A DNA stretch of 60,442 nt from Candidatus Tayloriibacteriota bacterium. Lineage in GTDB: Bacteria; Patescibacteriota; Minisyncoccia; Phycocordibacterales; PALSA-1337. The notes beneath the pieces were generated by a model, which searched no databases, was not told where the DNA came from, and was given only the letters and a program-made list of their open reading frames with translations. Position 1 is the stretch's first letter, and every line of letters starts with the position of its first letter. Where the stretch lies: positions 1 through 60,442 of the forward strand of contig CAIOGI010000003.1 of assembly GCA_903857825.1 (NCBI GenBank), given 5' to 3'. Positions 22,982 to 32,400 of the stretch are shown here, one piece after another. Position numbers and translations under genes: made by a program.

Positions 22982-24169
22982 ATGACAAGTATCATATACA
23001 TTGCTAGAGACATTGAAAGAGCCCTCGGCCAAGTGCCTGAAGGTGATTATTATATTGTTACAAACAAGACACCTTATGCGGAAGAAATAAAAATTGCCCA
23101 TCCTCACAATATTTTTCTTATAGACTCAAAAGAGATACTTGATACTTATGAGTTATTAACCAATGCGGAGGTGCAGGAGATAATCGCCAGGCTAAATGGT
23201 GGCCTTTTAGTTTTCAAAAATAATATTCATATTGAACAACTTTGCAAAGAGAAGAATTGGAAATTATTAAATCCTAGCGCGAAACTTTCTGACAAAGTAG
23301 AAAACAAGATATCTCAGATTGAATGGCTAGGTGAACTCGCTTCCCTTTTGCCTCCACACAAAATATTGGAGGTTAAGGACATTTTCTGGGATAAGAAACC
23401 TTTCGTACTTCAATGGTCACATGGTCACACAGGCGAAGGAACCGTTCTTGTGAAAGATGAGAATGAATTAAATGAATTAAAGAAAAAGTTTCCATATCGA
23501 GAAGCTAGAGTTACTGACTATATAAATGGACCGATGTTAACTGTGAACATTGTCGTAACAAAAACTGTAATCCTTTTGGGCAATATCAGTTATCAAATCA
23601 CCGGCATGCTCCCATTCACCACAAATCCTTTCAGCACTATTGGTAATGATTGGAGTTTACCACATACCATTCTAACCGAAGCACAAATAAAAGATTTTGA
23701 AGCTATAGCAGAAAAAGTTGCACAAAAAATGCAAAAGGATGGATGGTTAGGACTTTTTGGTATAGATGTTATTTATGATTCAGAGAGAGACAGTCTTCAT
23801 CTCATCGAAATCAATGCACGACAGCCGGCATCCACAACCTTCGAATCAGAACTTCAGAACATCATCCGTTCTCATAGTGTTGGTGGAATAACAACATTTG
23901 AAGCACACTTACTTTCACTTACTGACGGTAAGGTTCCCGCTTCACTTATCCCCATTAATGACGGCGCGCAGATAATACAAAGAGTTACGGGAAAAGAAAT
24001 AGACGCAGATGTGAAAGGTTTAATAGAAAATGGTAATAAAGTAATTATTTACAACAATATAACACCAAATGCAGACCTATTACGTATTCAGACAACGAGA
24101 GGCATAATGAAAACGCATAATAAATTTAATGAGAGGGGGAAGAAAATTTTGGAGGGGTTACTCGTATAG
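22982..24169 (+). CDS. ATP-grasp domain protein, substrate unknown
   Basis: GLFGIDVIYDSERDSLHLIEINARQPAST is an ATP-grasp C-terminal motif. The central FVLQWSHGHTGEGTVLV region fits the fold. No Ddl- or RimK-specific motifs seen. Confidence 0.6.
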   Translation: MTSIIYIARDIERALGQVPEGDYYIVTNKTPYAEEIKIAHPHNIFLIDSKEILDTYELLTNAEVQEIIARLNGGLLVFKNNIHIEQLCKEKNWKLLNPSAKLSDKVENKISQIEWLGELASLLPPHKILEVKDIFWDKKPFVLQWSHGHTGEGTVLVKDENELNELKKKFPYREARVTDYINGPMLTVNIVVTKTVILLGNISYQITGMLPFTTNPFSTIGNDWSLPHTILTEAQIKDFEAIAEKVAQKMQKDGWLGLFGIDVIYDSERDSLHLIEINARQPASTTFESELQNIIRSHSVGGITTFEAHLLSLTDGKVPASLIPINDGAQIIQRVTGKEIDADVKGLIENGNKVIIYNNITPNADLLRIQTTRGIMKTHNKFNERGKKILEGLLV

Positions 24170-24418
24170 TTCAGAATGCTTACCTAAATCAAAAAAATAA
24201 TAATTATCCCTTGATACTAACTTGTATATCGCTCTTATATCGCCTGTAATATTTATACTTCTACAGCCTTCAAATTCTCCGTGTAGCTTATGATTATTCA
24301 ATATGACATCAAATTCGTTTGCTTCAAAAATACGAATTCTCATATCAAATTTCTCCTGAATCTTCTTAGATAATTTTTTATAACTTTTATTAATATCTGA
24401 TGAAAAGGCAAGATTCAT
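24158..24418 (-). CDS. Type II toxin, RelE/YafQ-family mRNA interferase
   Basis: 86 aa with HKLHGEFEGCRSINITGDIRAIYK. Lies directly downstream of a DinJ/RelB-like antitoxin. Confidence 0.65.
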   Translation of the reverse strand: MNLAFSSDINKSYKKLSKKIQEKFDMRIRIFEANEFDVILNNHKLHGEFEGCRSINITGDIRAIYKLVSRDNYYFFDLGKHSELYE

Positions 24419-24439
24419 GTGAAATAAATATTAGATATA

Positions 24440-24712
24440 TTATGATTTCAGATTTTTAAGAAACAAATCTGAACCCTTATGAAAAACGACTTTACCTTCT
24501 GCAAGTTCTTTTTCTCCTCGTGCTATAACATCTCTTAAATGCGCAGATGGTTTATATGAAGCAGAAAAACTAACTTCTCGATCTCTCACAAACTGCTTCA
24601 AGAAAGCATTTATGACAGTGCTTAGAGGCACACCAATTTCTGATGCAACATCCTGTGCAAGGTTCTTTATTACTTTATCTGTTTTAATAGTTAAAAGTGT
24701 TTTTGTATTCAT
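24440..24712 (-). CDS. Type II antitoxin, RelB/DinJ family
   Basis: 90 aa. LTIKTDKVIKNLAQDVASEIGVPLSTVINAFLKQFV is a typical RHH DinJ N-terminus. Confidence 0.65.
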   Translation of the reverse strand: MNTKTLLTIKTDKVIKNLAQDVASEIGVPLSTVINAFLKQFVRDREVSFSASYKPSAHLRDVIARGEKELAEGKVVFHKGSDLFLKNLKS

Positions 24713-24756: not shown

Positions 24757-25545
24757 TCAAATGCTAATATCAAACCACCTCAATCTCCTCACCTCCGTCA
24801 CTGACTTCTGTGCGCGAGAAAAAGTATAGTTCTGATCTCCTGTCTTTTCATTTTCTATCCATCTTTGTTCCACAATATTTTTGTTTAAATCTAAAATATC
24901 AATTCTCCCCTCATGTATTCCGTGTCCATACTCGCCATCTGTAGGCCAAGCAACGGCATGAGTATAATGTATTACGGTTGGTAAAAGATTTTGATACTCT
25001 ACTTGATCGATAACTAACATATGATCTCTTTCTCCATTATCAGGACCACCAACCATGGTTATCATGTCTCCAACCTGTACTTCTTTTACACTTATAGCTT
25101 TACTATTCACATCATGAGCAAAAGTCTGTACTCCAGCGTTTTCTATTGGTCGAAATTTACTTTTAATTTTTCCAAAAACACCCTTCGCATAAGGAAATGA
25201 AAAATATCGGTCAAGCGCGCCCCTCACCAAACTTAAGCTCTCTTCATTTAATACATAGTATGCATAACCAGAACAATCAATACCGAGACTATTATCCACA
25301 AGAAACTTTTTTAGAGAATTTGAATCAAGTGATTTTAGGTCAATCTTTTCCTTGAACGCTCTTTGTTCAACTTCTTCATAAATATCTTTTGGACTTCCTT
25401 TACCACTTTCGACTCTAAAAGATGCCCTGTTACCAGTATGCTTATTATTAAAATATGGCACTGAACATACCACATCACCAACTTTAAAATTTGTATATTG
25501 ATCGATTACATCGAGTGCTTTTTGAGAAATATGTTTAATATTCAT
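24757..25545 (-). CDS. NlpC/P60-like cysteine hydrolase, apparently cytoplasmic
   Basis: GIDCSGYAYYVL (catalytic Cys context) and GDMITMVGG...DHMLVI (His context). No signal peptide visible. Confidence 0.4.
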   Translation of the reverse strand: MNIKHISQKALDVIDQYTNFKVGDVVCSVPYFNNKHTGNRASFRVESGKGSPKDIYEEVEQRAFKEKIDLKSLDSNSLKKFLVDNSLGIDCSGYAYYVLNEESLSLVRGALDRYFSFPYAKGVFGKIKSKFRPIENAGVQTFAHDVNSKAISVKEVQVGDMITMVGGPDNGERDHMLVIDQVEYQNLLPTVIHYTHAVAWPTDGEYGHGIHEGRIDILDLNKNIVEQRWIENEKTGDQNYTFSRAQKSVTEVRRLRWFDISI

Positions 25546-25604: not shown

Positions 25605-26732
25605 ATGATAAGTATATTAGAAGGAACAGCAGACTTGGCTATAATACTTGGTTTTTCTCTATTATCTTGCGTAGTCGCTTTTATTTGGTCACCGATTCTA
25701 ATAAAAATACTATATTATTTTAGAATAATTAAAGGGGCAAAAAGAGAATTGGCGATGATCGATTCTCAAAAAAATAAAGATCAAACTCCAGTCATGGGAG
25801 GACTTTTGATCATAATAACTGTTGCATTGATTACTCTGGTTTTCAATTGGTCAAGAAGTTATACATGGGTTCCAATTAGTGTAATGCTTCTGTCTGCACT
25901 ACTTGGTGCTGTTGATGACTTACTAAACATTTTCGGATCTGAAAGGCGATCTAGAAAACTTACTCAAATCTTCGCATTAATAAGAGTGCATCGTGAATTT
26001 AAAATGAGGATGTGGTACATAATCACATTACCATGGTCGATGTTCAAGAGAACTTCAGTTTGGATTGGTTCTAGAACTAGCAGAGGAATACATGTTCATG
26101 AAAAGCTATTACTTCAATTCGTCGCTGGTTCCATAACTGCATGGTGGATATACGACAAGCTTGGTTCTGCATGGCATTATATTTATTTCCCATTTAGCAT
26201 CGATATTTATGTAGGCTGGATAATCATTCCAATAGTTATTCTTATAGTAATGTTTACTGCAAACGCTGTGAATATAGCTGACGGTATGGATGGACTTGCT
26301 GGAGGCATGCTCATCTCATCTTTTAGTGCTCTTATGCTTTTGAGTTGGATAAATGGTTTCGGCGAAATAGCAATACTGAACGCAACTGTCGTTGGTGCCC
26401 TAGCGACATATACGTATTTCAATATTAAACCAGCCAGATTTATGATGGGAGATGTAGGATCCTTGGGATTGGGTGCCTTGTTCGCGGTAAACACAATAGC
26501 CATTGGCGAGATCGGCTCAATATTTTTCCTAGGCTTCCTTTTCTACATTGAAGCAATAACAGTGTTGATACAGGTACTAGGAAGATATATTCTGAATAGA
26601 AAGATATTTAAAATGGCACCAATACACCATCATTTTGAATTAAAAGGATGGAGTGAAGAAAAGACGATTATGCGTTTTTGGATAATACATTTTGTTTTTG
26701 TAGTCTTTGGTGTGTGGTTGGCTTTGCATTAG
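25605..26732 (+). CDS. mraY: Phospho-N-acetylmuramoyl-pentapeptide transferase
   Basis: NAVNIADGMDGLAGG, MGDVGSLGLGA and APIHHHFELKGW. Confidence 0.9.
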   Translation: MISILEGTADLAIILGFSLLSCVVAFIWSPILIKILYYFRIIKGAKRELAMIDSQKNKDQTPVMGGLLIIITVALITLVFNWSRSYTWVPISVMLLSALLGAVDDLLNIFGSERRSRKLTQIFALIRVHREFKMRMWYIITLPWSMFKRTSVWIGSRTSRGIHVHEKLLLQFVAGSITAWWIYDKLGSAWHYIYFPFSIDIYVGWIIIPIVILIVMFTANAVNIADGMDGLAGGMLISSFSALMLLSWINGFGEIAILNATVVGALATYTYFNIKPARFMMGDVGSLGLGALFAVNTIAIGEIGSIFFLGFLFYIEAITVLIQVLGRYILNRKIFKMAPIHHHFELKGWSEEKTIMRFWIIHFVFVVFGVWLALH

Positions 26733-26884: not shown

Positions 26885-27514
26885 ATGAAATACTTAAATT
26901 GGAAAGAAGAAAAAATATCGGACTTTAGAGCAGAAAACATTTCTAAAATGTATAATGCAGGTTTTGTCTTTACTCGTATAGACAAAGGAGTTATTCAGCA
27001 AACTAGAAGTGTTCGCATAAATTTAAGTAAATTTGAATTATCAAGTGAGAACAGGAGAATACTAAGGAAAGGAGTAGAAGTTTCTATGAAGGAAAGCGTG
27101 ATACCCTTTTCAGAATATTCTTGGCAAATAGGAAAAATGGCCAAAGACTTTTATGAGAAAAAAGCAGACGGAGCCTTTACTGCAAATAAAATAAAAGAAC
27201 TCATTACAACTGAGCAGAATTTTAATTTTCTATTATCATTCTCAGACACAGGTTATGCTATTTGTTATAAAAATCCGGCAATGATTCATTATTGTTATCC
27301 TTTTTATGATTTAGCAACAGCAGTAAAGGATATGGGGCTCATAATGATGACAAAGACTATAGAGTCTGCTAAAAATTCAGGTCTAAAATATGTTTATCTT
27401 GGTTCCCTACAACGTCCAGGGGATGTATATAAATTACAGTTTTCTGGCATAGAGTGGTTTGATGGAAAAAAGTGGTCGGAGGATTTGGAGGAGGTGAAAA
27501 GGGTTTTGAAGTAA
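26885..27514 (+). CDS. Ate/Bpt-family (aminoacyl-tRNA--protein transferase-like) protein, divergent
   Basis: NAGFVFTRIDKGV..TRSVRINLSKFELSSENRRILRK parallels Bpt GFRRSG...VRI....ELSRSQKRLL. YVYLGSLQRPGDVYKLQF parallels WLYLGYQI....MNYKVRF. It lacks the Cys-rich motif. Confidence 0.45.
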   Translation: MKYLNWKEEKISDFRAENISKMYNAGFVFTRIDKGVIQQTRSVRINLSKFELSSENRRILRKGVEVSMKESVIPFSEYSWQIGKMAKDFYEKKADGAFTANKIKELITTEQNFNFLLSFSDTGYAICYKNPAMIHYCYPFYDLATAVKDMGLIMMTKTIESAKNSGLKYVYLGSLQRPGDVYKLQFSGIEWFDGKKWSEDLEEVKRVLK

Positions 27515-28286: not shown

Positions 28287-29672
28287 ATGGATTCTTCACC
28301 AAAACACATTCACATCGTTGGTATATGCGGTGTAGCTACTAGCGCACTTGCTATTGCCTTTCACAATAAAGGCTGGAAAGTTACTGGTTCAGACAAAGGC
28401 TTCTTCCCTCCCGTTTCGACAGAACTAGAAAAACATGGGATATCTTTTTATGCAGGCTGGCATCCAGAAAAAATGATTGAGGGTGGAAAACTTGACATAG
28501 TAGTGATTACAACTTTTGCTGGAACAAAAAATCCAGAAATAAAATATGCTGAGGAAAATAACATTACTTTAAAACCTTACATGGAGGTATTCAGAGACTA
28601 CTTCATAAGACCAAAATCAATAGTCTGTGCGGGCACGTGGGGAAAGACCTCATCTTCAACTCTATTATCATATATCTTACAAGAAGCAGAGTTTGATCCC
28701 ACATACATGTTTGGCGGTATTTCTCTTTCCCATAATGCTTCGGCAAAACTGACAGATAGTGAGTACAGCGTATTTGAAGGAGATGAGTATAAAAGTTCAC
28801 CCACCGACAACACACCGAAGTTTGTATATTACAAACCTACGCATCTATTGTTGAGTGCAATATCTTGGGACCATGCGGATCTGTATCCAACAGAAGAAAG
28901 TTATTTTAATGTTTTCAGAAAACTAATATCAGGAATACCAAAAGATGGTTTCGTTGTGGCAAATAGAGATAATGAAAAGGTCAAAGAACTTGTACAAAAT
29001 GCTATATGGTATGGGAAAAGCGATGCGAAATATGTTTATAGTGATGTTAATCAAACAAAAGATGGTCTAGATTTCAAAATCAATGGAATTAAAATTCACT
29101 CGCCAATGATCGGGACATTTCAAGCAGAAAATATTACCGGGTGTTTCGCCATGGCATCAGAAATTGGAATACCAACTGAAAAAATCGTTAAAGCCATCTC
29201 CAACTTCAAAGGATTAAAAAGAAGACTTGAAAAAAGATTAGATAGCAAGGTAACAATATTCGATGACATAGCACATTCTCCAGAAAAAGCTGCTTCCGTT
29301 CTGAAAACCATTAGAGCAGTATATCAAGGAAAGATAATTACTATTTTCGAACCAAACAGTGGAGGTCGTCAAAGAGAGTCGTCAACAAAATACAACAACG
29401 CCTTCAAGGACTCCACCACAGTCATTATTCCCCGCCTTACGAAACTTAAGGTTGCTGACGATGGATCTGAAAAGCCTTTTGAAGGTGACGAACTTGCAGA
29501 GACCATAAAGAAAACTCAGCCAAATACTCTTTACATTGAAGACGATGATAAATTAGTAAAATATCTAATAGAAAACACAAGAGACGGCGATGTTATCGCC
29601 TTCCTTGGTTCACACGGATTTAGAGGTATGATAGAAGAGACGATTACTTCCCTTCGTCAACAATCTCAGTAG
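28287..29672 (+). CDS. Mur ligase family protein, MurC/Mpl type
   Basis: N-terminus IHIVGICGVATSALAIAFHNKGWKVTGSD..FPPVSTELEKHGI is closest to the Mpl/MurC pattern. P-loop GTWGKTSSS. Confidence 0.75.
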   Translation: MDSSPKHIHIVGICGVATSALAIAFHNKGWKVTGSDKGFFPPVSTELEKHGISFYAGWHPEKMIEGGKLDIVVITTFAGTKNPEIKYAEENNITLKPYMEVFRDYFIRPKSIVCAGTWGKTSSSTLLSYILQEAEFDPTYMFGGISLSHNASAKLTDSEYSVFEGDEYKSSPTDNTPKFVYYKPTHLLLSAISWDHADLYPTEESYFNVFRKLISGIPKDGFVVANRDNEKVKELVQNAIWYGKSDAKYVYSDVNQTKDGLDFKINGIKIHSPMIGTFQAENITGCFAMASEIGIPTEKIVKAISNFKGLKRRLEKRLDSKVTIFDDIAHSPEKAASVLKTIRAVYQGKIITIFEPNSGGRQRESSTKYNNAFKDSTTVIIPRLTKLKVADDGSEKPFEGDELAETIKKTQPNTLYIEDDDKLVKYLIENTRDGDVIAFLGSHGFRGMIEETITSLRQQSQ

Positions 29673-29808
29673 TTAGATTTTCCCCATCTACTTTCTTGGC
29701 AAGTAATGTAATACCACAATGATTACACTCGATAACCATTCCCTCATTTACAACTGGAAAACGAGAAAGATCGATACCATTCTTACATTCTGGACATATT
29801 GATTTCAT
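29644..29808 (-). CDS. LysW-like zinc-ribbon protein (amino-group carrier protein family candidate)
   Basis: From the ATG at 29808 the ORF is 54 aa: MKSI-CPEC-x19-CNHCG-...acidic tail EIVDEGK. It has the same length and Cys spacing class as LysW (CPECG...CxxCG...EDWGE). Its 3' end overlaps the convergent Mur ligase gene by 29 nt. Confidence 0.45.
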   Translation of the reverse strand: MKSICPECKNGIDLSRFPVVNEGMVIECNHCGITLLAKKVDGENLTTEIVDEGK

Positions 29809-29882
29809 AACTTTTATTGATTGGAAATACATAATTAATAAAGTACCTTCTAATACTACCTAAAACGTTGTATTATATCAAT

Positions 29883-30758
29883 ATGATAACACCAAACAAA
29901 GAATGCCCACAGCTAAAAGAGGCTTTAGAGATGGAATCCGTTTTCTTTAAACGTGAGGACCTTCATCCTTATGGTTCCCACAAAGGCAGATCAATACCCG
30001 TAATGATCGATCTATACTTGGCTCAGGGTAAAAAACATTTTGCTATTTCATCTTCTGGTAATGCGGCTTTGGCGGCATGTTTTCATATTGAAAAATTAAA
30101 TAATAATAGACTAGATAAAATTAAACTGGAAGTACTTGTTGGGCAACATATTTTTACAGAAAAATTAAGAAAACTAGAAAAATTTAAAAATGAAAGTATT
30201 TCAGTAACAATGCATGATCGTCCACTTCAAACTCTTTTCCAAAAAACAAAGGATGGCGATATTTGTACGCTAAGACAATCAACAGACGACACTGCCCTTA
30301 TTGGCTATAGTGAACTTGGCAAAGAATTATTAGAAATTCCAAACTTATCAGCTGTTTTTATTGGAACTTCTTCAGGTACTACAGCCCAAGCTTTGGCTGA
30401 ATATTTTATTAGAATTAATAAAAAAGTTGAATTACATATTGTACAAACATCATCTTGTCACACTATTTCTAATCATTTCGTTGATGACGAAACTCTCGAC
30501 GAGAAATCCATCGCAGATGCGATAGTCGATCATGGAGCATTGAGAAGAGACAATGTAATCAGATTAGTAGAAGAAACTAATGGTAGTGGTTGGATAGCTT
30601 CAAATGAACAAATTTTGTCAGCGCAAGAAATTACAAAAATAAATGAGGGAATAGATATATCTACGAATAGCGCTCTTTCAGTAGCTGGTTTAATGCAGGC
30701 TGTATATACTGGCAAAACTTGGGATGGTTCTGTTGTGTGCGTGATTTGCGGGGATTAA
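29883..30758 (+). CDS. PLP-dependent enzyme of the Trp-synthase-beta (PALP) superfamily
   Basis: FFKREDLHPYGSHKGRS matches the E..NPxGSFKDR lysine motif. GTSSGTTAQA is the glycine-rich phosphate loop. Start taken at the ATG at 29883. Confidence 0.6.
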   Translation: MITPNKECPQLKEALEMESVFFKREDLHPYGSHKGRSIPVMIDLYLAQGKKHFAISSSGNAALAACFHIEKLNNNRLDKIKLEVLVGQHIFTEKLRKLEKFKNESISVTMHDRPLQTLFQKTKDGDICTLRQSTDDTALIGYSELGKELLEIPNLSAVFIGTSSGTTAQALAEYFIRINKKVELHIVQTSSCHTISNHFVDDETLDEKSIADAIVDHGALRRDNVIRLVEETNGSGWIASNEQILSAQEITKINEGIDISTNSALSVAGLMQAVYTGKTWDGSVVCVICGD

Positions 30759-30772
30759 CAGTAGAAAATTTT

Positions 30773-32077
30773 CTACAATTCTCGCACAGCTCTTACAAAC
30801 CTCTCTCCCCTTTCTTTTCTAGAGACATCAACACCCACCGCATCAAAACCCGGACTAAATAAAACTATACCTTCTTTTTTTGTAGAATCTTTTGCCTTTA
30901 GAACTGCATCTTCAAGATTTAAAACTTGGTATACCTCAAGCCCTTCTATTTCTTCTATGTGCTTTCTTAATCCTATTGTTCCACTTCCAGGTAGTAATAT
31001 AACAGTAGATACATACTGAGACAGATTCTTGATCAATAGATCATAATCTTGACCGGTATATGCTCCTCCAAAAATTAAAGTAGTATTTTTGTCTTTATAT
31101 ATTGCTCTTAGTGCTGCTAAAGTAGATGCGGGACTTACGGATGACGCATCATTATAGTAATCAACATTTGCAACTTTTTTTATATATTCTATATGCCCCC
31201 TAAGACCTAGAAAGGTTTGAATCACTTCCATCGATATTTCCTTTGAAACCTTAAATAATTCACTAGTTTGTAAAGCTAATGAGGCATTTTCTTGATCATG
31301 AAGTGCTTTTTTTTCCATACCCCATTCTTTGGGAATTGAACTAGCTCTAGTACGAAGAATCTTTGCTTTAGAGATTATACTTGATCTTGATTTTATACTG
31401 TCTATCACCTCATCAGTAGCTACTATAAAGTTATTATAAGTCTGGAATTCAAGCATTTTAAATGATGTGACAGAAGTTAAAACTGCGACATGAGGACTCA
31501 TACGTATACCATAATAATATTCTATTAATGATTCTGGGATTCTGGCAAGAACTACATCACCTTTTTTTATCTTCTTTAAATGTGTTAATGCTCCTCCAGT
31601 AGAACTAGAGTCAAGCAAGAATAATCCTTGATCATCATACTCAAGAAAAGCCTTTTTCAGCATTCTGTATATCAAATGTACTACTGTACTTTTCCCATAC
31701 ATACCCATTACCCCCACAAAGGTGACTGGTGGCGCTAATTTAAAAAACAGAATATCAGCATATTCAATTTTGATTCCAGCATCAATAGCCTTCTTTAGAA
31801 AAGTTGATCTATAAGATACTTCTGTTGAAAGAATAATTTGATCAAATTCAAGCAAATCAATATCAATTATCTTTCCAAAGGAAAATCTATGAAGCCCACC
31901 TATTGAGAGGTCCATTATATAGTTTTTTATACGTTCTTCACTATGAGTATCGAATAAAGATACCTTTGCCTTATTTCTTAATAAGAATTTAATATCAGCG
32001 ATCATTTCTCCATGAGGACCTATACCTATAACCGCAATCTTTTTATCTTTGAAATAGTCTTTATAATTCACATGCAC
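30773..32077 (-). CDS. murD: UDP-N-acetylmuramoylalanine--D-glutamate ligase
   Basis: N-terminal Rossmann-like KIAVIGIGPHG and Mur P-loop GVMGMYGKST. 434 aa, in mur gene context. Confidence 0.6.
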   Translation of the reverse strand: MHVNYKDYFKDKKIAVIGIGPHGEMIADIKFLLRNKAKVSLFDTHSEERIKNYIMDLSIGGLHRFSFGKIIDIDLLEFDQIILSTEVSYRSTFLKKAIDAGIKIEYADILFFKLAPPVTFVGVMGMYGKSTVVHLIYRMLKKAFLEYDDQGLFLLDSSSTGGALTHLKKIKKGDVVLARIPESLIEYYYGIRMSPHVAVLTSVTSFKMLEFQTYNNFIVATDEVIDSIKSRSSIISKAKILRTRASSIPKEWGMEKKALHDQENASLALQTSELFKVSKEISMEVIQTFLGLRGHIEYIKKVANVDYYNDASSVSPASTLAALRAIYKDKNTTLIFGGAYTGQDYDLLIKNLSQYVSTVILLPGSGTIGLRKHIEEIEGLEVYQVLNLEDAVLKAKDSTKKEGIVLFSPGFDAVGVDVSRKERGERFVRAVREL

Positions 32078-32091
32078 TATTATATCAAATT

Positions 32092-32400
32092 TTATGGTTT
32101 TAATTTACTCTCATCAATTATCATACTCTTAACCTTTATCATTTCTTGAAGTAATGCCTGAAGCTTAATTGAACTTTCATTATTTATTGTATCTGAAGCT
32201 ACAAATATAGATATCTTGCATAGGAATAGATTGTATATATCATTAAAATACTTCTCTAATATATCTGTACGGTCAATAGCCCCATTGTCTTTATCATTTA
32301 AAAAAAAGATATCTACCGGCCTATTTATGCCTTCAAAATACAAGAAGTCATCTGATAATATTCCATCTATTACTGGGTATGATTTTTGGTATTTTTTCAT
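32092..32400 (-). CDS. Hypothetical protein
   Basis: 102-aa ORF packed tightly between radC and murD. No recognisable motif. Confidence 0.35.
   Translation of the reverse strand: MKKYQKSYPVIDGILSDDFLYFEGINRPVDIFFLNDKDNGAIDRTDILEKYFNDIYNLFLCKISIFVASDTINNESSIKLQALLQEMIKVKSMIIDESKLKP

Follow-up and report, generated by a model that had tools for sequence, protein, structure and literature searches.

A small zinc-ribbon protein with a C-terminal lysine is encoded inside a cell-wall gene cluster on contig CAIOGI010000003.1 of a Candidatus Tayloriibacteriota bacterium. The whole stretch of DNA that was analyzed, 60,442 nt in length, is referred to as the window, and the small protein as the mini-protein. 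Its gene is at positions 29644–29808 on the minus strand and the product, a putative carrier, is 54 aa with a LysW-like Cys4 zinc ribbon and a C-terminal Glu-x-Lys (here DEGK). The mini-protein is a relative of LysW, but it is not a canonical LysW/ArgW amino-group carrier. With a pyridoxal 5'-phosphate (PLP) enzyme and an ATP-grasp ligase it forms a unit, termed the module here, that is co-inherited across seven families. A lysine-tailed LysW relative in a cell-wall cluster points to a variant of the carrier-protein principle in an unexpected pathway. The mini-protein very probably works together with the PLP enzyme and the ligase, as their carrier or partner.

The mini-protein gene

The open reading frame (ORF) extends over positions 29644–29832 of the minus strand. 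The start that is kept among homologues is Met9 (position 29808), which gives the 54 aa product. The motifs CPEC, 19 residues and CNHCG follow each other in this order, and the protein ends in ...TEIVDEGK; all of these elements, listed in a preliminary description of this DNA, are present in the sequence. A database search found 173 homologues at E ≤ 0.01, all in Patescibacteria (ultra-small bacteria of the Candidate Phyla Radiation). The 173 homologues have four invariant Cys residues, the invariant segments CPECKN and ECNHCG, and the tail I-x-DEGK. Matches confirmed in species-representative genomes number 118, and 80 loci out of these were retrieved for comparison. The 54 aa ORF is a genuine conserved gene and not a chance reading frame. 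Public labels of the homologues are blank or wrong, e.g., "RNA polymerase subunit RPC12/RpoP", "ribosomal protein L37AE/L43A" and "sulfonate ABC transporter".

The PLP enzyme gene diverges from the mini-protein gene across a spacer of 74 nt (positions 29809–29882), as first described; the ATG at 29883 is also the start in homologues and sets this length. The spacer contains promoter-like hexamers on the minus strand, TTGATA-17-TAGTAT at positions 29881–29853, which represent a match to consensus only. At its 3' end the mini-protein gene overlaps a convergent MurC/Mpl-like gene by 29 nt (positions 29644–29672). This overlap, another feature of the preliminary description that is borne out, is common but not constant. 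Its length is exactly 29 nt in 26 related loci, in the loci of one family (f40) it is 20 nt, and in the remaining loci the boundary varies from shorter overlaps up to gaps of more than 1 kb.

Similarity to LysW and the lysine tail

Searched alone, the window protein matches PF21344 with E = 5e-4 and 20 bits, which is under the gathering score of 27, and the NCBIfam LysW model with E = 1.5e-3. A broad family profile (A3), to which more distant members from other families of the same class were added, has as its two top PDB matches LysW from Thermus (3wwl, E = 4e-6) and LysW from Thermococcus (5k2m, E = 2e-5). RNA polymerase and ribosomal ribbons are found by this profile only at E > 0.3 (RPB12, E = 0.34). 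PF21344 is matched by 19 of 19 family members tested, the best with E = 5.5e-11. The PDB matches of the broad profile and the PF21344 matches establish, at the level of sequence comparison, that the ribbon is homologous to the LysW zinc ribbon. Mini-proteins of family f63 are near-LysW by eye; they are 50 aa in length (...CGAEHEVIS..P..LELIEEEK) and acidic like LysW, with a net charge of -12 to -14.

The C-terminal tail sets the family apart. Glu52 and Lys54 are invariant in the family alignment. Lys is the last residue in 155 of the 156 homologues collected, with DEGK as the ending in 116 and EEEK in 34. The C-terminal Lys is the hallmark of the mini-protein family, and the EDWGE tail of LysW, with attachment at the gamma-carboxyl of its terminal Glu, is not found. 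The doubt expressed in the preliminary description over the Gly-Lys ending in place of Glu was apt. No RimK/LysX-type ligase was found in the genome, where the RimK model matches the Ddl gene only. Of the further pathway enzymes LysZ, LysY, LysJ and LysK, the two covered by searches were LysY (Semialdhyde_dh) and LysJ (Aminotran_3), and both are absent from this genome, which has a completeness rating of 100%. The different tail and the absence of LysX, LysY and LysJ place the mini-protein outside the LysW/ArgW pathway family. The original proposal of a LysW-like amino-group carrier holds for the zinc ribbon (3wwl, 5k2m and PF21344) and for the partner trio described below, but not for membership in LysW/ArgW.

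The same results bear on the simplest alternative, that the protein belongs to a regular LysW/ArgW system that makes lysine or arginine, or is an RNA polymerase or ribosomal zinc ribbon with no relation to LysW. The JGI label "RNA polymerase subunit RPC12/RpoP" and a narrow profile (A1), which ranked RPB12 (E = 0.09) slightly above LysW (E = 0.64) in the PDB, are in its favor. However, assignment to an unrelated ribbon, an outcome that the preliminary description had provided for, was not obtained with the broad profile, in which LysW ranks first. In addition to the tail and the missing LysW pathway genes, the distribution is patchy (28 of 401 genomes, see below) and tied to two enzymes, unlike that of a core component of transcription or the ribosome. 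This alternative is extremely improbable. Another candidate origin, the split-off N-terminal zinc ribbon of archaeal-type threonine synthases, was rejected as there is no similarity to those models.

Co-inheritance and gene order

The distribution of the three genes was determined in 401 genomes of the same class, drawn evenly. The PLP enzyme subfamily is present in 28 of the 401, from seven families. An orthologous ATP-grasp (> 300 bits) is found in 27 of these 28 genomes and in 0 of the 373 others; the 28th genome is fragmentary. The mini-protein was found in 26 of the 28, and of the two genomes that lack it one is an 88%-complete bin and the other has a run of N at the expected site. No mini-protein was found in three control genomes that have an ATP-grasp paralogue only. 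The co-occurrence of the trio, which had been proposed as a check, is thus evident in related genomes.

Gene order is conserved as well. The families are designated by numbers, and the window belongs to f1. The PLP gene is back-to-back with the mini-protein gene in 76 of the 77 f1 loci that have enough context, and the ORFs found in the gaps match PALP in 76 of 76 cases. The two genes are divergent neighbors in every locus of the class where contigs allow the comparison. In loci with context the ATP-grasp gene comes next after the PLP gene or lies a few kb further downstream, and the mini-protein gene is placed beside murC or murD throughout. In f63 the order is mraY ... murD, the convergent mini-protein gene, and then in divergent orientation the PLP gene, the ATP-grasp gene, ftsW, murG and murC, i.e., a classical division and cell-wall cluster. 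An apparent 701 aa MurD-PALP fusion ORF (L104:4464-6569) is an artefact in which a run of N bridges two genes, and the mini-protein gene of this locus is probably hidden inside the N gap.

In the window the ATP-grasp gene is at positions 22982–24169 on the plus strand, where the preliminary description located it. It had been termed an orphan. It does lie 5.5 kb from the mini-protein gene, but it is co-inherited with the other two genes, and the separation in the window represents a derived state. The gene for an NlpC/P60 cysteine peptidase is at positions 24757–25545 on the minus strand. It has the DCSG catalytic motif and lacks a signal peptide, and it is a putative release amidase. Two small ORFs (86 and 90 aa) are found between the ATP-grasp and NlpC/P60 genes, at positions 24158–24712 on the minus strand, and have homologues in 3 of 80 loci. 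They separate a gene pair that is adjoining in other families and were probably inserted recently.

The PLP enzyme and the ATP-grasp ligase

The gene at positions 29883–30758 (plus strand) is the only PALP gene in the genome and encodes a compact fold-type II PLP enzyme of 291 aa. It matches PALP (PF00291) with 114 bits, above the gathering score of 35. The Schiff-base Lys is located in GSHKGRS, and the Lys of this SHKGR motif is invariant in homologues. Threonine synthase is the nearest fold (TM-score 0.84; profile E = 1e-13). Nevertheless, the score against the best NCBIfam threonine synthase model is 51.6 bits with a cut-off of 421, so the enzyme does not qualify as a ThrC equivalog, and the ThrC phosphate-binding block NSxNPxRxEGQK is replaced by an invariant LRQSxDD. 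After it come dehydratases of serine and threonine and the PLP racemases of serine and aspartate, and SbnA is another structural neighbor. The substrate-carboxylate loop is SSSGN. Its Gly is preceded by Ser, which is also the case in 5ybw, a PLP aspartate racemase (HSSGN), whereas threonine synthase has STGN. A Ser at this position is the second, re-face base of fold-type II racemases.

The ATP-grasp protein is a carboxylate-amine ligase with a three-domain fold and is the putative loader of the mini-protein. Its predicted structure (pLDDT 93) resembles PurK, biotin carboxylase and peptide ligases more than LysX, and the protein is not a Ddl. Foldseek with this model gives generic three-domain ATP-grasp neighbors only, and the ESM Atlas label is "ATP-grasp_3". 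Profiles of the ATP-grasp and NlpC/P60 proteins gave nothing specific in the PDB. An ATP-grasp paralogue of about 500 aa, which scores about 200 bits, occurs widely in other families, e.g., G306:C3:7529-8719 and G029:C8:89067-90320, and is a second copy in 7 of 7 module genomes of f40.

Two alternatives to a reusable loaded carrier were considered. One is regulatory. The mini-protein would remain unloaded, and its Glu-x-Lys-COOH end would enter the PLP active site as an on/off switch. PALP enzymes are known to bind the C-terminal tails of partner proteins, as in CysO-CysM and in CysE-CysK, the cysteine synthase complex, where the tail is that of serine acetyltransferase. The strict pairing with the PLP gene, the back-to-back arrangement of the two genes and an invariant last residue that carries a free carboxylate all fit such a switch. 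It leaves unexplained the equally strict co-inheritance of the ATP-grasp gene and the added cytoplasmic amidase, and the ribbon is homologous to that of a bona fide covalent carrier. A purely regulatory tail is considered unlikely.

In the second alternative the terminal Lys would itself be the substrate. The PLP enzyme would add a C3/C4 amino-acid unit to the epsilon-amine by an SbnA- or threonine synthase-like replacement, or the ligase would extend or close the tail, and the product, a building block of the diamino-acid type or a modified peptide, would then be cut off. This would resemble scaffold-peptide (PEARL, peptide aminoacyl-tRNA ligase) and graspetide pathways. SbnA-type enzymes take amine nucleophiles, SbnA is a structural neighbor as noted above, and the set includes a peptidase and two invariant tail residues (E52 and K54). 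However, removal of an encoded Lys would consume the carrier at each turnover. Also, MurE is ordinary in this genome (332 bits), and the association of the module is with loss or alteration of MurD, not of MurE. Use of the Lys as a substrate is distinctly unlikely.

Cell-wall genes in the window

The preliminary description placed the mini-protein gene in a segment with little biosynthesis. This was not borne out; the gene is inside a peptidoglycan-precursor cluster, between murC and murD and near mraY. The MurC/Mpl-like ligase gene is at positions 28287–29672 (plus strand), convergent to and overlapping with the mini-protein gene. Its product scores 250.6 bits against murC (TIGR01082, cut-off 335) and 215.8 bits against mpl (cut-off 388.7). 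A strongly diverged MurD-like ligase is encoded at positions 30773–32077 on the minus strand and scores 131.5 bits against murD (TIGR01087, cut-off 212). The P-loop and C-terminal half are kept, and the best-matched stretch is at model positions 211–440. No other murD candidate was found in the genome. MraY, of glycosyltransferase family 4, is a conserved neighbor (positions 25605–26732, plus strand). Beside it is an ATE/Bpt-like aminoacyl-tRNA transferase homologue of 209 aa (positions 26885–27514, plus strand).

These neighbors are maintained in related loci. A convergent murC is present in 79 of 80 f1 loci and an upstream MurD-like gene in 77 of 80, and the mraY, NlpC/P60, ATE/Bpt-like and ATP-grasp genes are ≤ 10 kb away in most. 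The ATE-like gene is found in 62–64 of the 80 f1 loci, but among 67 genomes of the class that were tested it is present only in this one. As it is specific to f1, the transferase was ruled out as a general member of the module. A 102 aa ORF immediately upstream of the gene for the MurD-like ligase (positions 32092–32400) matches nothing in Pfam or NCBIfam and is kept in 73 of 80 f1 loci; it may be a further, family-specific member.

The genome is 779 kb and has four Mur-type ligases (MurE, MurF, MurC-like and MurD-like). MurE is canonical, with a score above the cut-off, and Alr and Ddl are also present. Neither MurI nor a class-IV aminotransferase (Aminotran_4) was found in the genome.

The module and the Mur ligases across genomes

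MurD and MurC were compared in 67 genomes, 28 with the module and 39 without it. The module genomes are of two types: type A (f63, f103 and f43; n = 17) and type B (f1, f40, f56 and f61; n = 11), to which the window belongs. Of the 39 non-module genomes, 32 have a full-length murD (model positions 1–440) that scores above the cut-off, whereas none of the 11 type B genomes has a murD that reaches it. In type A the murD that adjoins the mini-protein gene passes the cut-off in 14 of 17 genomes, but it aligns only from about position 33–140 onward, in ORFs of 490–520 aa. Thus MurD is altered, strongly diverged or missing in module genomes. MurC is below the cut-off in 11 of 11 type B genomes (172–250 bits, cut-off 335), whereas it is canonical in type A and in most non-module genomes. 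The NlpC/P60 subfamily of the window, without signal peptide, is present in 11 of 11 type B genomes and in 0 of the 56 others. A different NlpC/P60 gene is beside murD in the two type A loci that were examined.

The role of the module is probably in supplying position 2 of the wall peptide, that of D-Glu.

A proposed carrier cycle

The best explanation as a whole may be a LysW-type carrier in reverse, in which the epsilon-amine of the terminal Lys is offered in place of a Glu carboxyl; we hold it with somewhat less than even confidence. The cargo would be tethered by its side chain because a fold-type II PLP enzyme needs a free alpha-amino acid. The tether would be the terminal Lys because this is the only invariant side chain that could hold an acidic amino acid in this way. 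From the gene-level facts, which are what has been shown, and by analogy with known enzymes we infer covalent loading, the identity of the cargo, a racemase activity and a release step. The exact chemistry given below is tentative.

In the first step the ATP-grasp ligase would join the gamma-carboxyl of L-glutamate to the epsilon-amino group of Lys54 in the acidic Glu-x-Lys tail. The threonine synthase-like PLP enzyme would then invert the free alpha-carbon end to give D-Glu. In the third step the alpha-amine of the tethered D-Glu would be acylated and so joined to L-Ala. In type A lineages, with an altered MurD, this enzyme may carry out the joining directly on UDP-MurNAc-L-Ala (the uridine diphosphate-linked N-acetylmuramyl precursor). 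In the lineage of the window the diverged MurD-like, the ATE-like and the MurC/Mpl-like enzymes may be involved. Finally, the cytoplasmic NlpC/P60 peptidase would cut the gamma-D-Glu-Lys bond, which would regenerate the carrier and leave the gamma-carboxyl free for canonical MurE. The NlpC/P60 family is known for cutting gamma-D-Glu-diamino-acid bonds.

Several observations weigh against this proposal. Loading of the tail is argued by analogy, and since the module ATP-grasp is unlike LysX/RimK, the LysX precedent does not transfer directly. A Ser before the Gly of the PLP loop is also found in PALP enzymes that are not racemases, e.g., CysK, so the SSSGN loop merely permits a racemase function. 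In the gamma-D-Glu bonds that known NlpC/P60 enzymes cut, the partner is an alpha-amino group and not an epsilon-amino group. The ATE-like gene is confined to f1, so that an L-Ala step with this enzyme would not be general. Genomes within one family are not independent, and the statistical support is therefore smaller than the counts given above suggest. That MurI and Dat are absent discriminates only weakly. MurI is missing in 301 of the 401 class genomes, and of 19 genomes tested that have neither MurI nor the module, 13 are without Aminotran_4 as well. Among the 28 module genomes, MurI is present in one (G291) and an Aminotran_4 gene in four. Finally, 7 of the 39 non-module genomes also lack a murD above the cut-off (G190 and G364, of the same order, and G305, G004, G007, G337 and G037). 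MurC has diverged in G190 and G364 as in module genomes, and it is canonical in G337 and G037. No murC match at E ≤ 1e-40 was found in G305, G004 and G007.

G190 and G364, without the module or MurD and with a diverged MurC, make peptide salvage through an Mpl-like ligase a live alternative. Here the diverged MurC would be an Mpl-type ligase that re-uses wall peptides of the host, the NlpC/P60, ATP-grasp and PLP enzymes would tailor these peptides, and the mini-protein would be an adaptor. The mpl score of the window ligase is nearly equal to its murC score, and a cytoplasmic NlpC/P60 enzyme, YkfC, takes part in peptide recycling. Nevertheless, type A genomes keep the trio despite a fully canonical MurC, and salvage has no need for a LysW-type protein with an invariant Lys. 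On balance peptide salvage is quite improbable.

With the carrier cycle as the preferred explanation, the module may, again tentatively, provide a D-Glu route by way of a LysW-derived "carboxyl-group carrier protein". This would be a third way into peptidoglycan, replacing MurI and canonical MurD in several ultra-small lineages, and in the lineage of the window canonical MurC as well. If true, it would widen the LysW principle of amino-group tethering to include the tethering of carboxyl groups, and account for the peptidoglycan of many Patescibacteria with "incomplete" wall pathways. It would also correct the database labels of the homologues, which are now unannotated or given as an RNA polymerase subunit, a ribosomal protein or a sulfonate transporter.

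Comparison with known systems

The cytoplasmic steps of MurC, MurD, MurE and MurF, with MurI or Dat as the source of D-Glu, are regarded as nearly universal and serve as targets of antibiotics. No description of a lysine-tailed LysW relative or of a carrier-protein step in peptidoglycan synthesis was found in the open-access literature, and a search of it for murD in Patescibacteria gave nothing relevant. The only published exception to the MurI/Dat and MurC-F scheme found there is MurD2/MurL, an alternative ATP-driven D-Glu route of bacteria without MurI and Dat, such as Xanthomonas and Micromonospora (PMC8788868). It is similar to the module genomes in the absence of MurI/Dat, in a changed MurD and in the use of ATP to place D-Glu at position 2 (PMC8788868). 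Its components are not homologous to those of the module, with the exception of the MurD relative.

Parts of the proposed cycle have counterparts elsewhere. In CysO-CysM and CysE-CysK, as proposed for the mini-protein, the C-terminus of a small partner would reach the active site of a fold-type II PLP enzyme. However, CysO has a ubiquitin-like fold and a Gly-Gly thiocarboxylate, the tail of CysE ends in Ile and only inhibits, and both are without a zinc ribbon, a tail ending in lysine or a connection to the cell wall. Glutathionylspermidine synthetase/amidase combines an ATP-grasp ligase with an amidase of papain-like (CHAP/NlpC-P60) type, and the two make and break the same kind of amide bond. 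There the two activities are fused in one protein and act on small-molecule substrates, with no carrier and no PLP step.

The closest parallel is with the LysW/ArgW amino-group carrier proteins of Thermus, Sulfolobus and Thermococcus, and of the related carrier pathways in Streptomyces. These are also 50–54 aa with a Cys4 ribbon and an acidic, flexible C-terminal tail, and, like the mini-protein, they have an ATP-grasp ligase as partner and probably a hydrolase by which the carrier is restored. They differ in the tail, EDWGE with a terminal Glu compared to the invariant Glu-x-Lys of the mini-protein, and in the ligase, which is RimK/LysX-like there and similar to PurK, biotin carboxylase and peptide ligases in the module. 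Their pathways (LysX, LysZ, LysY, LysJ and LysK) also include a kinase, a reductase and an aminotransferase, where the module has one fold-type II PLP enzyme and an NlpC/P60 peptidase. LysW and ArgW function in lysine and arginine biosynthesis, whereas the module is found in the peptidoglycan-precursor setting of Patescibacteria.

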